64,000 bases of DNA, taken from assembly GCF_055900595.2 (NCBI RefSeq), contig NZ_CM148325.1. One strand, 5' to 3'. Both the position numbers and the translations under genes were made by a program. This document shows positions 64 to 50,096 of this stretch, piece after piece (positions within the stretch are counted from its first letter, which is position 1; every line of letters starts with the position of its first letter). The notes beneath the pieces are model-generated. The model saw only the letters and a list, made by a program, of their open reading frames with translations. It was not told the origin of the DNA and searched no databases.

Positions 64-487
64 TCGTTTAGTATGCCACAGAGAACCGGGAAATAACATC
101 CCTTAACACTTGTTATGAGATAATTCTGTAATCCTCTTTGCTTCCTGAGTAATAACTTCCTGAGTGAATATTTCTCCTGCGCACGATTCTACACATATAT
201 ATAATGAATAATAAAAGTCATTCAATTAATAATATATATATTAATTGCCATTAAAACTAAAAACAGCATCAATAATCAACGCGATATAACATCACCGCCT
301 TACATATCACCTGCGCCAGAGGTAGGATTGAAAACGCTCTCCTGATTTTCAAATTCATTATCTGGATAAATAAATAATTTATTTTCATCACTATTATTTA
401 TGCAATCATCCTGTCAGGGAGAGGGATCTCAATTATCAATGCTTAATTACGTCAACATTTTGACGACATGAAACCGGAGCATTTTGC

Positions 488-2143
488 ATGGAATTTTCGT
501 TTTCACCCAAACTTCTTGTTGTGGCTGTCGCCGCCGCTCTTCCACTCATGGCCAGCGCAGCAGATACCCCGTCAACCGCCACCGCACGCAAAGGCTTTGC
601 CGGATACGATCACCCAAACCAGTATCTGGTTAAACCGGCGACCACTATTGCCGACAACATGATGCCGGTGATGCAGCATCCTGCACAAGACAAAGAAACC
701 CAGCAGAAGCTGGCGGAATTAGAGAAAAAGACCGGTAAGAAACCGAACGTGGTTGTTTTCTTGCTGGATGATGTGGGCTGGATGGACGTTGGCTTTAACG
801 GCGGCGGCGTGGCGGTGGGTAACCCTACACCAGATATCGACGCCGTTGCCAGCCAGGGGCTGATTTTAACTTCGGCGTATTCTCAACCGAGTTCTTCCCC
901 AACCCGCGCCACGATTCTCACCGGACAATACTCCATCCACCACGGCATTCTGATGCCGCCAATGTACGGGCAACCGGGCGGTCTGCAAGGGTTAACCACT
1001 CTGCCGCAGTTGCTGCACGATCAGGGCTACGTCACCCAGGCCATCGGGAAATGGCATATGGGGGAAAACAAAGAGTCGCAGCCGCAGAACGTTGGCTTTG
1101 ATGATTTCCGCGGCTTTAACTCGGTATCCGATATGTATACCGAATGGCGTGATGTTCATGTCAACCCGGAAGTCGCCCTGAGCCCGGATCGTTCTGAATA
1201 CATCCAAAAACTGCCGTTCAGCAAAGATGACGTTCATGCCGTGCGCGGCGGTGAACAGGAAGCCATTGCCGACATTACGCCGAAATATATGGAAGACCTG
1301 GATCAACGCTGGATGGAATATGGCGTTAAGTTCCTCGACAAGATGGCGAAGAGCGATAAGCCTTTCTTCCTCTACTACGGCACTCGCGGCTGTCACTTCG
1401 ATAACTACCCAAATGCGAAATATGCGGGTAGCTCTCCGGCGCGCACCTCTTACGGCGACTGCATGGTGGAGATGAACGATATCTTCGCCAATCTGTATAA
1501 AGCACTGGAGAAAAACGGTCAGCTTGATAACACGCTGATTGTGTTCACCTCTGATAACGGTCCGGAAGCTGAAGTTCCGCCGCACGGTCGCACGCCGTTC
1601 CGCGGTGCGAAAGGTTCTACATGGGAAGGCGGCGTTCGTGTGCCAACCTTCGTTTACTGGAAAGGGATGATCCAACCGCGTAAATCTGACGGTATTGTCG
1701 ATCTGGCGGATCTCTTCCCTACGGCGCTGGATCTGGCAGGACATCCTGGAGCGAAAGTGGCGAATTTAGTGCCGAAAACCACCTTTATTGATGGTGTGGA
1801 CCAGACATCTTTCTTCCTGGGAACAAATGGTCAGTCTAACCGTAAGGCCGAGCACTACTTCCTCAACGGCAAACTTTCTGCTGTGCGTATGGATGAGTTT
1901 AAATATCACGTACTCATCCAACAGCCATACGCTTATACCCAGAGCGGGTATCAGGGTGGATTCACCGGCACAGTAATGCAAACGGCGGGATCGTCGGTGT
2001 TTAACCTGTACACCGATCCGCAGGAAAGCGACTCTATCGGCGTGCGCCATATCCCAATGGGTGTACCGCTACAGACCGAAATGCACGCGTATATGGAGAT
2101 CCTGAAAAAATATCCGCCGCGCGCGCAGATTAAATCTGATTAA
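488..2143 (+). CDS. aslA: arylsulfatase-like periplasmic sulfatase
   Basis: 551-aa ORF with N-terminal signal peptide ([24 protein letters not shown]) and sulfatase signature S-x-P-x-R ([12 protein letters not shown]); synteny with aslB. Confidence 0.9.
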
Positions 2144-44566: not shown

Positions 44567-44744
44567 AAAAGTTTGATGCTCAAAGAATTAAACTTCGTAA
44601 TGAATTACGTGTTCACTCTTGAGACTTGGTATTCATTTTTCGTCTTGCGACGTTAAGAATCCGTATCTTCGAGTGCCCACACAGATTGTCTGATAAATTG
44701 TTAAAGAGCAGTGCCGCTTCGCTTTTTCTCAGCGGCGCGGGGTG

Positions 44745-44776
44745 TGCATAATACGCTTTCCCGCTACAGAGTCAAG
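44745..44776 (-). promoter_or_regulatory. rrnC P2 promoter
   Basis: Minus strand TTGACT-16nt-TATTAT followed by GC-rich discriminator (fwd: ataatacgccttcccgctacagagtcaa). Confidence 0.75.
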
Positions 44777-44862
44777 CATTTATTTTTGCTTTCTCTGCCG
44801 AAGTTCTCAGGAGAACTCCGCTGACCCGGCGGCGTGTTTGCCGTTGTTCCGTGTCAGTGGTG

Positions 44863-44990
44863 GCGCATTATAGGGAGTTATTCCGGCCTGACAAGAGGAA
44901 ATTTAAAATAATTTTCCGACCGCGCATTTTTTCAGCAAAAGCCCCGTTAATGTGCCATAAAACAAGCAATTTGCCGTTTTTGCAACCGTA
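44863..44990 (-). promoter_or_regulatory. rrnC P1 promoter with upstream UP element / Fis-site region
   Basis: Minus strand TTGTCA-16nt-TATAAT-GCGCCACC (stringent discriminator), with AT-rich UP-like sequence (gaaatttaaaataatttt) and upstream activator region. Confidence 0.75.
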
Positions 44991-45046: not shown

Positions 45047-45739
45047 ATGCCTTTAAGCGCACAACAGTTAGCTGCACAGAAAAACCTTTCGTATGTTCTG
45101 GCTGAGAAGCTGGCGCAACGGATCTTAAAAGGTGAATATGAACCCGGCACCATTTTGCCTGGTGAGATTGAGCTGGGCGAGCAATTTGGAGTGAGTCGTA
45201 CAGCGGTACGCGAAGCGGTTAAAACGTTAACGGCAAAAGGGATGGTTTTACCGCGACCACGAATTGGTACCCGGGTCATGCCACAATCAAACTGGAATTT
45301 TCTTGATCAGGAATTGCTTACCTGGTGGATGACAGAAGAGAACTTTCATCAGGTCATCGATCACTTTCTGGTTATGCGTATCTGTCTGGAGCCGCAAGCT
45401 TGCCTACTGGCTGCAACGGTTGGCACCGCGGAACAGAAGGCGCATCTCAATACGTTAATGGCCGAAATGGTGGCATTAAAAGAGAACTTTCGCCGTGAAC
45501 GCTGGATTGAGGTCGATATGGCCTGGCATGAGCATATCTATGAAATGAGCGCCAATCCGTTTTTGACCTCATTCGCCTCGCTCTTCCATTCGGTTTATCA
45601 CACTTACTTCACGTCAATTACCAGCGACACAGTGATAAAGCTGGATCTGCACCAGGCGATTGTTGATGCGATTATCCAAAGCGATGGCGACGCGGCATTT
45701 AAAGCTTGTCAGGCGCTGCTACGCTCACCTGATAAGTGA
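45047..45739 (+). CDS. yieP: GntR/FadR-family transcriptional regulator
   Basis: 230-aa ORF with N-terminal GntR wHTH (LGEQFGVSRTAVREAVKTLTAKGMV) and FCD-type C-terminal domain. Confidence 0.9.
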   Translation: MPLSAQQLAAQKNLSYVLAEKLAQRILKGEYEPGTILPGEIELGEQFGVSRTAVREAVKTLTAKGMVLPRPRIGTRVMPQSNWNFLDQELLTWWMTEENFHQVIDHFLVMRICLEPQACLLAATVGTAEQKAHLNTLMAEMVALKENFRRERWIEVDMAWHEHIYEMSANPFLTSFASLFHSVYHTYFTSITSDTVIKLDLHQAIVDAIIQSDGDAAFKACQALLRSPDK

Positions 45740-45761: not shown

Positions 45762-47189
45762 ATGAGCGATAAAAAGAAGCGCAGTATGGCGGGTTTGCCG
45801 TGGATCGCGGCGATGGCCTTCTTCATGCAGGCACTTGATGCCACTATTCTGAATACCGCCTTACCCGCAATCGCTCATAGCCTTAATCGTTCTCCTCTCG
45901 CGATGCAATCAGCCATCATCAGTTACACGCTGACGGTGGCGATGCTTATTCCGGTAAGCGGATGGCTAGCCGATCGCTTCGGTACGCGTCGCATATTTAC
46001 CCTTGCCGTGAGTCTGTTCACATTGGGTTCTCTGGCCTGCGCACTTTCTAACTCGCTACCACAGCTGGTTGTCTTCCGGGTTATTCAGGGGATAGGTGGC
46101 GCAATGATGATGCCTGTTGCTCGGCTGGCCTTACTGCGTGCTTATCCTCGTAATGAGCTTCTTCCTGTATTGAATTTTGTCGCCATGCCGGGTCTGGTGG
46201 GGCCAATTTTAGGCCCCGTACTTGGCGGCGTGCTGGTCACCTGGGCAACCTGGCACTGGATATTTTTAATCAATATCCCCATAGGTATTGCCGGCCTTCT
46301 TTACGCGCGCAAACATATGCCCAATTTCACCACCGCACGACGCAGATTCGATATCACTGGCTTTTTGCTGTTTGGCCTCAGCCTTGTTCTCTTCTCAAGC
46401 GGAATAGAGCTCTTCGGTGAAAAGATTGTCGCCAGTTGGATTGCCTTGACGGTAATTGTCACCAGCATCGGGTTACTGCTTCTCTATATTCTCCATGCAC
46501 GACGCACGCTAAACCCATTAATTTCATTAGATTTATTTAAAACCCGCACTTTCTCGATCGGTATAGTAGGCAATATTGCAACCCGTCTGGGGACCGGCTG
46601 TGTACCGTTCCTTATGCCATTGATGTTACAGGTAGGATTTGGTTATCAGGCGTTTATTGCCGGCTGTATGATGGCACCGACAGCGTTAGGTTCCATTATT
46701 GCAAAATCGATGGTTACCCAAGTCTTACGTCGTCTGGGCTATCGCCATACGTTAGTGGGGATCACGGTAATTATTGGGCTAATGATCGCTCAGTTCTCTT
46801 TGCAATCACCAGCAATGGCGATATGGATGCTGATCTTGCCGTTGTTTATATTAGGGATGGCTATGTCGACGCAATTTACCGCGATGAATACCATCACACT
46901 TGCCGATCTGACCGATGACAACGCCAGCAGCGGTAACAGTGTTCTGGCGGTCACGCAGCAACTGTCTATCAGTTTAGGCGTTGCTGTAAGTGCGGCCGTC
47001 CTTCGCGTTTATGAAGGGATGGAAGGCACAACGACTGTCGAACAATTCCACTATACGTTTATCACAATGGGCATTATTACTGTTGCTTCAGCAGCAATGT
47101 TCATGCTTCTGAAAACAACCGATGGTAATAATTTGATCAAAAGACAGCGTAAATCTAAGCCGAACCGCGTTCCATCAGAATCGGAGTAA
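45762..47189 (+). CDS. hsrA: MFS transporter (putative multidrug efflux, HsrA/YieO)
   Basis: 475-aa ORF with ~14 hydrophobic segments, DHA2-type MFS organisation. Confidence 0.9.
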
Positions 47190-48147
47190 GTTGTAATCGT
47201 TGTTGCTGAAGGGTCGGTTGGGTTATCCGATGGATGAGTACATCAATCGCCAGCTCCCCCAGTTCATCTTTCGGTTGATGGATAGTGGTTAATGGTGGCG
47301 TCATAAAGCTTGCCAGTTCGATATCGTCATAGCCAATCACCGCGATATCCTGCGGAACCTGTAACTCTGCCTGATATAGCGCCTGGTAAACGCCAACAGC
47401 CATAGCGTCATTTCCGGTAAAGACGGCCTGAGGACGCAGCGGATGTGATAACAGTTGGCGCATAGCGTCAAACCCGCCGTTAAATTCAAAATCACCAGTG
47501 ACTTCATAGCCATCAGGAATGTTGAGACCCGCACGTTTCATCGCCGCCCGATAACCTTCCAACCGCAGGCGCGCCGGAGTTTTATCCAGCGGGCCGGTAA
47601 TACAGGCGATACGGGTATGACCTTTATCGATCAGATATTGCGTTGCTAAGTCTCCGCCCAGCAACGAATTATCCTGAATGAGATCGCTGTCGCCATCGAA
47701 TGGTGCCCAGTCCATCATCACGGTAGGCACTGTCGGATAACGTTGCATGATTTCACGCGAAGGCTGATGCGTTTCGGTGCACAGTAACAGCAAGCCATCA
47801 ACGCGCTTTTGCATCAGCGTTTCCAGATTACGATTCATCCGCTGCTCATCGCCTTCGGTATTGCAAAGAACAAGACTATAGCCGCGCTCGAAGCAGCTGC
47901 GTTCAACGCCACGCACCAGTTCAGAATAAAAAGGATTGGTACTGGCAGTAATCAACATGCCAATGGTTCGAGTCTGATTGAGCTTGAGGCTACGCGCCAG
48001 AGCTGATGGCGCGTAATTGAGTTCTTTAATTGCCGCTTCAACTTTGGCAGTAATCGCTTCACTGACGAAGCGATCTTTATTGATGACGTGAGAAACTGTT
48101 GAGGTAGAAACGCCCGCCAGGCGGGCAACATCTTTCATTGTAGCCAA
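47155..48147 (-). CDS. rbsR: ribose operon repressor (LacI family)
   Basis: 330-aa ORF with LacI-type HTH ([33 protein letters not shown]) and periplasmic-binding-like core; last gene of rbsDACBKR. Confidence 0.95.
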
Positions 48148-48150
48148 GCG

Positions 48151-49080
48151 TCACCTCTGCCTGTCTAAAAATGCGTCGATCTCTTCACGCCATGGAACGG
48201 AAGGTTGTGCGCCTTTGCGCGTTACAGCAATCGCTGCGGCGGCATGAGCAAAACGAATCGCCTCCGGCAACGGTTTTTCTTCCAGCAACGCCGTGATTAA
48301 CGCGCCGTTAAAAGTATCTCCGGCAGCAATGGTATCGACAGCCTGCACCCGGAATCCAGGAACGCGCTGACCTTCACCATTCACGCTAGCCCATACACCA
48401 CGACTTCCTAAAGTAATCAGTACAGTACGGATACCTTTTTCATGCAGTACCTGCGCCGCTTTCGCTGCATCTTCATCATTTTCAACACGAATATCGGTGA
48501 GCTTTTCTGCTTCCGTTTCGTTTGGCGTAATAATGTCCACCAGCGCCAGCAGTTCGTCAGGAAGTTCGCGAGCCGGAGCCGGGTTAAGCGCAACGATAGT
48601 CTTATTTTGATGGGCGATTTTCGCCGCTGCCATCACACTTTCGAGTGGTGATTCCAGCTGCATTAATAATGCCGATGCGTTAGCAATACGCTCACGTTGC
48701 GCCTCCACCAGCGCAGGGGAAAGGGCTGCGTTAGCGCCGGCATGAATACCAATGACATTCTCACCTTCGCCATTAACAAAAATCAGCGCCACACCTGTTG
48801 ATTCGCCTTTGATCACGCTCACCGGAGAAATATCGATGTTATCAGTGGCGAGCTGCTGGCGAACGCTCTCACCAATGCTGTCATCACCCGTACAGGCAAT
48901 AAACGCGATATTCGCACCGCTACGCCCTGCAGCCACAGCCTGATTCGCGCCTTTGCCGCCAAATGCAACCTGATAGTGGTTACCGGTTACGGTTTCGCCT
49001 GGAGTAGGAAAAGATTGAAGATTAAGAATGTGGTCAGCATTAATGCTGCCAAGAACAACGAGGCTGCCTGCGTTTTGCAT
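48151..49080 (-). CDS. rbsK: ribokinase
   Basis: PfkB-family ORF; start placed at MQNAGSLVVLGSINADHILN (309 aa); the track ORF is 9 codons longer. Confidence 0.9.
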   Translation of the reverse strand: MQNAGSLVVLGSINADHILNLQSFPTPGETVTGNHYQVAFGGKGANQAVAAGRSGANIAFIACTGDDSIGESVRQQLATDNIDISPVSVIKGESTGVALIFVNGEGENVIGIHAGANAALSPALVEAQRERIANASALLMQLESPLESVMAAAKIAHQNKTIVALNPAPARELPDELLALVDIITPNETEAEKLTDIRVENDEDAAKAAQVLHEKGIRTVLITLGSRGVWASVNGEGQRVPGFRVQAVDTIAAGDTFNGALITALLEEKPLPEAIRFAHAAAAIAVTRKGAQPSVPWREEIDAFLDRQR

Positions 49081-49205
49081 ATTCGGGATGTCCATAAAAT
49101 GCGCCACCGTGTTAGGGTGGCGCGTGCCCTGCTTTTCTTTATTTTACACGTTCATCTGTCGATGACGTATTTATGTCACCATCAGGTCATACAACCTGAT
49201 TAAAA

Positions 49206-50096
49206 CTACTGCTTAACAACCAGTTTCAGATCAACCGGATACTTAGCCTGAACTTTCTCGCCTTTCAGCACTTTATCGGCGGTTTCGACGCCTTTCGCGC
49301 CAATCTGATCGGGTAGCTGAGCGATAGTCGCTGCTAGTTTGCCATCATTCACCGCTTTTTCGCCATCCGGTGTACCGTCAAATCCGACGACCATCACATC
49401 CGATTTACCAGCAGTTTGCAGTGCGCGCAGCGCGCCCAGCGCCATTTCATCATTCTGCGCGAACACAGCCTGAACATCCGGATGAGCGGTCAACAGGTTC
49501 TGCATTACGTTCAAACCTTTGGTGCGGTCAAAGTCCGCTGGCTGGCTGGCAAGAACATTAAACTTGTGAGCAGCAACGGCCTGCTGGAAACCTTCGCCAC
49601 GCTCACGGGCTGCGGAGGTACCGGCAATGCCTTGCAGCTCGATAACTTTGGCTCCTTCGCCCGCTTTCTTCGCGATGTAATCACCGGCGATTTTGCCGCC
49701 CAGTACGTTATCAGAAGCAATATGGCTCACTACTTCACCTTTCGTTGCCTGGCGGTCAAGAGTGATAACCGGGATATTCGCCTGGTTAGCCATCTTCACA
49801 GCATTACCCACTGCGTCGGAGTCGGTCGGGTTAATTAGCAGAATTTTGGTGCCGCGAACGGTTAAGTCCTGCACGTTCGCCAGCTCTTTCGCCGGGTTGT
49901 TCTGGGAGTCCAGCACCACCAGGTTATAGCCGAGTTTATCCGCCTCTTTCTGCGCGCCATCTTTCAGCGATACAAAGAACGGGTTGTTAAGCGTGGAGAC
50001 CACCAGCGCGATGGTGTCTTTTGCCATCGCATTCGCACTGACGGTGGCGCTTAGCGCAACAGCGGAAACCAGGGTAGCCAGTTTTTTCATGTTCAT
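49206..50096 (-). CDS. rbsB: periplasmic ribose-binding protein
   Basis: Start placed at [25 protein letters not shown] (signal peptide), 296 aa. Confidence 0.95.

Follow-up and report, generated by a model that had tools for sequence, protein, structure and literature searches.

The window analysed in this work, a stretch of 64,000 nucleotides from contig NZ_CM148325.1 (NCBI RefSeq assembly GCF_055900595.2), carries two convergent genes, hsrA (yieO) and rbsR, whose 3' ends share 35 nt on opposite strands at positions 47155–47189, according to the ORF listing and to direct reading of the sequence. The features of this locus are the following:

45047..45739, plus strand: yieP, a GntR/FadR-type regulator and first gene of its operon, which drives hsrA transcription toward rbsR (ORF, PGAP, K-12, PMC11340327)
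45762..47189, plus strand: hsrA (yieO) coding sequence, 475 aa (ORF; PGAP and curated K-12 annotation); the product is a putative 14-TM MFS transporter and the gene is the second of the yieP-hsrA operon (Pfam; PMC11340327)
46093 (K-12 3940281, minus strand), plus strand: published Rho termination region inside hsrA, listed with a Rho score of 2.16 (PMC7815308)
47139..47159, plus strand: A-rich stretch of Lys/Arg codons in the hsrA tail, site of frame-changing indels between genera (junction alignment)
47155..47189, both strands: tail-to-tail overlap of 35 nt, antiparallel phase (123:132) (direct reading)
47155..47157, minus strand: rbsR stop TAG, CTA on the plus strand (direct reading)
47156..47158, plus strand: out-of-frame TAA beside the rbsR stop (cTAAg); it is the hsrA end position in the class with a 4-nt overlap (shared TTAA/CTAA)
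47187..47189, plus strand: hsrA stop TAA (direct reading)
47155..48147, minus strand: rbsR coding sequence, 330 aa with a TTG start, LacI-family ribose operon repressor (ORF, PGAP, K-12)
47190..47451, plus strand: untranslated part of the hsrA transcript beyond its stop codon, which lies antisense to rbsR and runs to a published Rho region
47987..48074, minus strand: premature-termination zone in the 5' part of rbsR (Rho region, Term-seq 3' end and hairpin)
49096–49329, minus strand: small RNA RbsZ (K-12 b4804), which covers the 3' end of rbsB and the spacer between rbsB and rbsK

Within the overlap each gene has 10 sense codons, its stop codon and 2 nt of another codon, and the hsrA codon positions 1, 2 and 3 lie opposite positions 1, 3 and 2 of rbsR. 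The PGAP annotation of strain Z0117EC0005, in which this segment is 100% identical, shows the identical 35-nt overlap, and so does the curated annotation of K-12 MG1655, with rbsR at 3938227..3939219 (plus) and hsrA at 3939185..3940612 (minus). The window aligns with K-12 without gaps over 11 kb at 97.4% identity, and a K-12 coordinate x corresponds to window position 47189 + (3939185 − x). The window is E. coli DNA; the segment was found in 5417 of the 5426 complete E. coli genomes, and the junction at an identity of at least 95% in 5356 of them. The original prediction had proposed a convergent overlap of 35 nt between the coding ends of hsrA and rbsR; this was borne out by the ORFs, by PGAP and by the K-12 annotation, and a check for any annotation that would place either stop further upstream revealed none, given that PGAP and K-12 mark the same stops. 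A mis-called stop or an annotation artefact was also considered and discarded, since PGAP agrees with curated K-12, the crystallised RbsR comprises 330 residues and the stops are conserved in position. The standard K-12 record already includes the overlap, and the pair is already present in a published excludon catalogue. As for nomenclature, PGAP names the gene at 45762–47189 'mdtD: multidrug transporter subunit MdtD' in RefSeq genomes of E. coli, versus hsrA (putative transporter) in curated K-12, an inconsistency that could mislead.

Both partners are real protein-coding genes, as indicated by their domain matches, by the structure of RbsR and by the orthologues of both that are found in 80 species. 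HsrA shows a Pfam MFS_1 match over residues 17–406 (E=1.8e-54). Inspection of the sequence puts the end of its last hydrophobic helix at ...AAMFMLL, after which comes a hydrophilic tail of 25 residues; the residues encoded in the overlap are part of this tail, beyond the final membrane helix. RbsR contains the Pfam LacI HTH and Peripla_BP_3 domains, with the match extending up to residue 329 of 330, and its residues 2–330 align with the 330-residue chain of PDB 9ny7/9ny8 ("Ribose operon repressor") with one substitution. Likewise, the alignment of PurR to RbsR runs to RbsR residue 329, through the stretch HPRLIERRS of PurR. Given that the RbsR domains and the solved structures reach its last residues, the rbsR stop is as far upstream as the fold permits, and the overlap is due to the HsrA tail. 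If the rbsR TAG is read through in E. coli, the next in-frame stop lies six codons further, which is the state of the class with a 53-nt overlap described below. The shared segment encodes the last beta-strand of RbsR, needed by the fold, and, on the other strand, a hydrophilic and presumably cytoplasmic tail of HsrA that would be translated and mildly selected.

The arrangement was compared across the Enterobacteriaceae by scanning one genome per species, which yielded 80 loci. In all 80 species hsrA and rbsR are convergent and abut without a spacer, in a range that goes from a 3-nt gap to a 53-nt overlap, with the following forms:

Gap of 2–3 nt: Kluyvera, Phytobacter, Atlantibacter
Overlap of 4 nt, the stops sharing TTAA or CTAA: many genera
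Overlap of 9 nt: Kosakonia
Overlap of 24 nt: one Kosakonia species, in which a TGA was lost
Overlap of 35 nt: Escherichia, Citrobacter, Salmonella, Intestinirhabdus and part of Enterobacter/Leclercia
Overlap of 53 nt, with an RbsR six residues longer: Lelliottia, Huaxiibacter

The 35-nt or the 53-nt form is present in 40 distinct species (of Escherichia, Citrobacter, Salmonella, Enterobacter, Leclercia, Lelliottia and others). Regarding conservation of the overlap across the family, the part that stands is the junction with zero spacer, found in 80/80 species; its length varies, and many genera are without the 35-nt form. In the five loci with the 53-nt overlap (L031, L032, L035, L036 and L043, from Lelliottia, Huaxiibacter and one Enterobacter sp. 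MAG), the rbsR stop is displaced and six residues are added, e.g., SAGGDL. In the course of this comparison it was observed that contig CACSKA010000004.1 (L033), recorded as 'Chryseobacterium sp. 18061', carries an Enterobacteriaceae hsrA-rbsR junction, which has two differences over the 111-nt junction segment with respect to that of 'Citrobacter sp. 18056' (L027), from the same project; this Chryseobacterium record is probably mislabelled or contaminated.

A DNA alignment of the junctions, anchored on the rbsR stop, revealed that the classes differ by indels in the A-rich run of lysine codons near the hsrA 3' end. The distance between a conserved His/Arg codon of the hsrA tail and the rbsR stop, taken modulo 3, decides the class, i.e., a remainder of 2 gives the 4-nt overlap, 0 gives 9 nt and 1 gives 35 nt, and in every class hsrA runs along the antisense of the conserved end of rbsR only until its frame meets a stop. 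In E. coli, the three possible plus-strand frames into rbsR give overlaps of 35, 42 or 4 nt, and the TAA at 47156–47158 is bypassed because hsrA is in another frame. The hsrA frame on the rbsR antisense contains 25 stops per 330 codons, approximately one per 13; an open run of 11 codons is therefore typical, and the length of 35 nt is the chance expectation once the frame had changed. In a rough NJ tree the junction classes are clade-specific, the 53-nt form falling inside the 35-nt clade and the 24-nt form inside the 9-nt one. From this tree, whose deep branches are poorly resolved, the 4-nt overlap is likely ancestral and the 35-nt overlap derived, and the latter may have arisen once or twice. 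Previously, Lillo and Krakauer (2007, PMC2174442) reported 58 convergent overlaps in E. coli, and the phase (123:132) was the commonest among convergent overlaps of at least 5 nt; the 4-nt TTAA/CTAA form was the commonest one, and an origin by displacement of a stop agrees with these overlap statistics.

From these results, the following course of events may be proposed. The yieP-hsrA and rbs operons face each other, stop against stop, and the older form was likely a shared TTAA or CTAA tetranucleotide. An indel of 1 nt in the A-rich run of lysine codons near the hsrA 3' end would have put hsrA in a new frame, in which it would read the antisense of the last 10 rbsR codons up to the first in-frame TAA, opposite the Leu-Thr codons CTT-ACT. 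The outcome would be the 35-nt overlap of Escherichia, Citrobacter, Salmonella and part of the Enterobacter group.

Another aspect of this junction is how transcription ends on each side. The original prediction held that neither gene can have an intergenic terminator and that the transcripts must read into the coding sequence of each other. The first statement agrees with the lack of intergenic DNA at a junction that is without spacer in the 80 Enterobacteriaceae species. A scan revealed no hairpin resembling an intrinsic terminator within several hundred nt of either stop; the nearest candidate on the plus strand is located approximately 865 nt downstream, and there is none on the minus strand inside hsrA. 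A G+C-rich stem-loop flanked by A- and U-tracts, as expected for a bidirectional terminator, was not found at the junction either, the predicted RNA structure of the junction was no better than that of shuffled sequences (z = -0.78 and -0.35 on the two strands), and no Rfam family matched it at E≤1. Elsewhere in the window, a sub-threshold Rfam match to Ysr197 (80.8 bits, for a gathering score of 167) was noticed at 44688–44939 on the minus strand, directly ahead of the 16S rRNA gene; its most likely source is the conserved rrn leader region rather than a separate sRNA.

With no spacer and no terminator hairpin, any full-length mRNA enters the coding sequence of the partner. This second part of the original prediction is upheld by the lack of a terminator at the junction and also by two published data sets. 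In the ExcludonFinder catalogue (NAR 2025, PMC12288877), rbsR-hsrA is one of the 165 convergent excludons given for E. coli MG1655, with overlapping transcription in at least 50% of 58 RNA-seq sets. In turn, supplementary file 2 of Adams et al. (2021, PMC7815308), a study that used bicyclomycin, lists a Rho termination region at K-12 3938923 on the minus strand, described as "antisense rbsR", with a Rho score of 2.78 and P=7.6e-6. This coordinate corresponds to position ~47451 of the window, 262 nt past the hsrA stop. The overlapping transcription of hsrA and rbsR is thus real, as judged from these published entries. For the opposite strand, the listed entries of Adams et al. (PMC7815308) include neither a Rho region nor a Term-seq peak past the rbsR stop, antisense to hsrA, and the SMRT-Cappable-seq supplements contain no mention of rbsR, hsrA, yieO or yieP. 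Patches rich in C and poor in G were detected after the hsrA stop, at +120..220 and +260..400 on either side of the Rho region, with a C/G ratio of up to 1.86 (+280..360), and after the rbsR stop, with a ratio of up to 1.71 (+480..560); these patches are modest and mostly fall under the 95th percentile of the window (C/G 1.72).

On both sides, transcription is also reduced before it reaches the junction. It has been reported that yieP and hsrA form an operon that is autoactivated by YieP (PMC11340327), and the Rho region at 46093 lies within hsrA itself. On the rbs side, the entries listed by Adams et al. (PMC7815308) include a Rho region inside rbsR (K-12 3938387, plus strand, score 3.77) and a Term-seq 3' end at K-12 3938325 (plus strand), which is window position 48049, 98 nt into the ORF. 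A perfect palindromic hairpin of 8 bp is present at 48053–48074 on the minus strand, 4 nt upstream of this 3' end, and the Rho region is just downstream; this suggests a Rho-dependent attenuation of rbsR, the 3' ends being trimmed back to the hairpin. Further upstream, the strongest Term-seq 3' end of the region among the entries of the same source (K-12 3937278, PMC7815308) corresponds to the RbsZ terminator that follows rbsB. The terminator, GCGCCACC-CTAACAC-GGTGGCGC-ATTTTAT, is intact in the window, and it limits transcription into rbsK-rbsR. Regarding rbsK (48151–49107, minus strand), its longest ORF starts from a GTG at 49107 (318 aa) versus the annotated ATG at 49080 (309 aa), and the extra codons overlap the RbsZ terminator. 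Given the Rho region in hsrA, the RbsZ terminator, and the Rho region and 3' end in rbsR, the convergent flux is probably low.

The stop codon of hsrA imposes a particular demand on rbsR. The TAA is the complement of position 1 of an rbsR Thr codon and of positions 3 and 2 of the adjacent Leu codon, and the stop requires that this Leu codon be CTT, which gives TAA, or CTC, which gives TGA. Among the species with the 35-nt or the 53-nt overlap, the codon is CTT in 95%, and CTC in the other two, so that all 40 distinct species carry one or the other; at the same position in the remaining junction classes six different Leu codons are found. Codon variability was then compared using rbsR codons with fourfold or higher degeneracy and a conserved amino acid, the upstream codons of the same species serving as control. 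In the species that bear the overlap, the mean codon entropy was 0.70 bits for the 8 rbsR codons inside the overlap versus 1.45 bits for 87 upstream codons (resampling P≈2e-5), a signal that comes from only 8 codons and from related species. In the 41 species without a long overlap the same rbsR codons showed 1.37 versus 1.37 bits (P=0.49). The tail of HsrA follows the pattern K-x-K-P-x-x-x-P-S-[E/K]-x-E. Complementarity between the two RNAs was considered as a cause of the conservation of synonymous sites and was rejected, since the two strands of one DNA are always complementary and therefore no constraint arises. The conservation may best be read, although from few codons, as selection at the protein level on the HsrA tail and its stop; translation of the tail, under weak selection, appears likely.

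An alternative is that the overlap is nominal, i.e., that the extension of HsrA is a neutral read-through tail or is left untranslated, with no consequence for either protein. The sequence of the tail is indeed variable, it is located outside the MFS domain, and many genera are without any extension of HsrA. Nevertheless, the synonymous sites of rbsR that face the HsrA tail and the hsrA stop show far higher conservation than those upstream, and this is so only in species with the overlap; moreover, the position of the hsrA stop is kept in 40/40 distinct species of the 35-nt and 53-nt classes, despite its reliance on a non-preferred Leu codon of rbsR. We consider this alternative unlikely. A stronger claim would be that the junction is a functional excludon, in which transcription of yieP-hsrA and of the rbs operon antagonise each other by polymerase collision and/or by RNase III cleavage of the duplex, their expression being reciprocally coupled; it would be predicted, for example, that induction by ribose leads to less hsrA, and activation by YieP to less RbsR. 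The catalogued overlap of transcription in at least half of the 58 RNA-seq sets (PMC12288877) is in line with this claim, as is a hsrA transcript that, according to the entry in PMC7815308, covers at least ~260 nt of antisense rbsR before termination by Rho, together with the family-wide arrangement with zero spacer and the precedent of the convergent E. coli genes mscL-arfA, in which antisense RNA and RNase III regulate mscL (PMC10070815). However, ExcludonFinder assigns its classes by coverage overlap alone, which is automatic where the coding sequences overlap, and both streams of transcription are attenuated ahead of the junction, by the RbsZ terminator and by the Rho regions inside rbsR and hsrA. 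Both the length and the phase of the overlap vary freely from genus to genus, which also argues against selection for a particular duplex, and no obvious physiological link between the functions of HsrA and RbsR is known. A functional excludon is therefore improbable in our judgement, and the same evidence makes it distinctly improbable that the junction couples, as a working excludon, the ribose regulon to the YieP-controlled transporter operon (by collisions or RNase III) with the HsrA tail as a selected dual-coding element. Our literature search found no report on reciprocal expression of hsrA and rbsR or on RNase III processing of this pair, and none naming yieO together with rbsR.

It could also be that polymerases arriving from the two sides halt one another at a fixed position, and that this collision acts as a bidirectional terminator and is the normal mode of termination for both genes. 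These are convergent genes without terminator DNA between them, and programmed head-on collisions have been described for convergent pairs of E. coli (bioRxiv 10.1101/2022.10.23.513370). Nevertheless, the mechanism described in that work needs a stem-loop in the nascent RNA between the gene boundaries; none is present at hsrA/rbsR, where the folds equal those of shuffled sequences. In addition, according to the entry in PMC7815308, bicyclomycin increases readthrough on the hsrA strand, a response that implicates Rho, and collisions of multiple polymerases are unlikely at low expression. This makes a collision-type terminator very hard to credit. That genera differ freely in the length and phase of the overlap, that no structured element is present and that transcription is attenuated upstream on both sides all favour an incidental arrangement with at most weak cross-talk. 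Interference or antisense regulation between the hsrA and rbsR mRNAs is plausible as a putative effect, and probably weak. Taken as a whole, the locus is best explained, and we hold this with good confidence, as an ordinary convergent overlap of two real genes that came from a frame change rather than from design.

For an ordinary convergent overlap of this kind, each transcript would enter the partner gene as untranslated antisense RNA and would be stopped by Rho, about 260 nt in for the hsrA strand, as the published data suggest, and presumably in a similar manner for the rbsR strand. The two mRNAs would then carry complementary 3' regions, and polymerases could meet head-on or RNase III could cut the duplex; with low transcription that is attenuated upstream on both sides, any regulatory effect would be small.

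The junction may be placed next to several known systems. It is like the convergent overlaps surveyed previously (PMC2174442), in which a pair of real genes, one on each strand, overlap at their 3' ends, with the commonest phase, with a 4-nt TTAA/CTAA form among its relatives and with a length set by the next in-frame stop. Nothing essential differs; what hsrA-rbsR adds is a change of class best explained by a frame-shifting indel in an A-rich run rather than by a point mutation in the stop codon, as well as a dual-coding constraint that can be measured. Concerning excludons, rbsR-hsrA itself is an entry of the catalogue (PMC12288877), and its transcripts are necessarily complementary at their 3' ends; however, excludons are defined by mutually exclusive expression and RNase III-dependent processing, whereas the membership of hsrA-rbsR comes from overlapping transcripts, and here the overlap is between coding sequences with no long UTRs. 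The mscL-arfA pair (PMC10070815) is also formed by convergent E. coli genes with complementary 3' regions, but its antisense regulation and RNase III cleavage were shown experimentally, and the likeness of hsrA-rbsR to it is one of arrangement. Finally, as in the programmed RNAP collisions and bidirectional intrinsic terminators reported by Wang et al. (bioRxiv 10.1101/2022.10.23.513370), a convergent pair must stop both streams of polymerases; in contrast with those terminators, the hsrA/rbsR junction is without a stem-loop and without an A/U-tract element, and the termination on the hsrA strand is sensitive to bicyclomycin, which indicates Rho.

The hsrA-rbsR overlap is thus of little consequence in itself, being one of roughly 58 convergent overlaps of E. 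coli and a textbook member of this group. If reciprocal regulation were true, it would be one more case of antisense coupling between unrelated operons, and no new principle would follow. The added value is modest and lies in the natural series that the family offers of how such overlaps arise and change in length, by indels in an A-rich run at a junction without spacer, and in a dual-coding constraint that appears only where the overlap exists.
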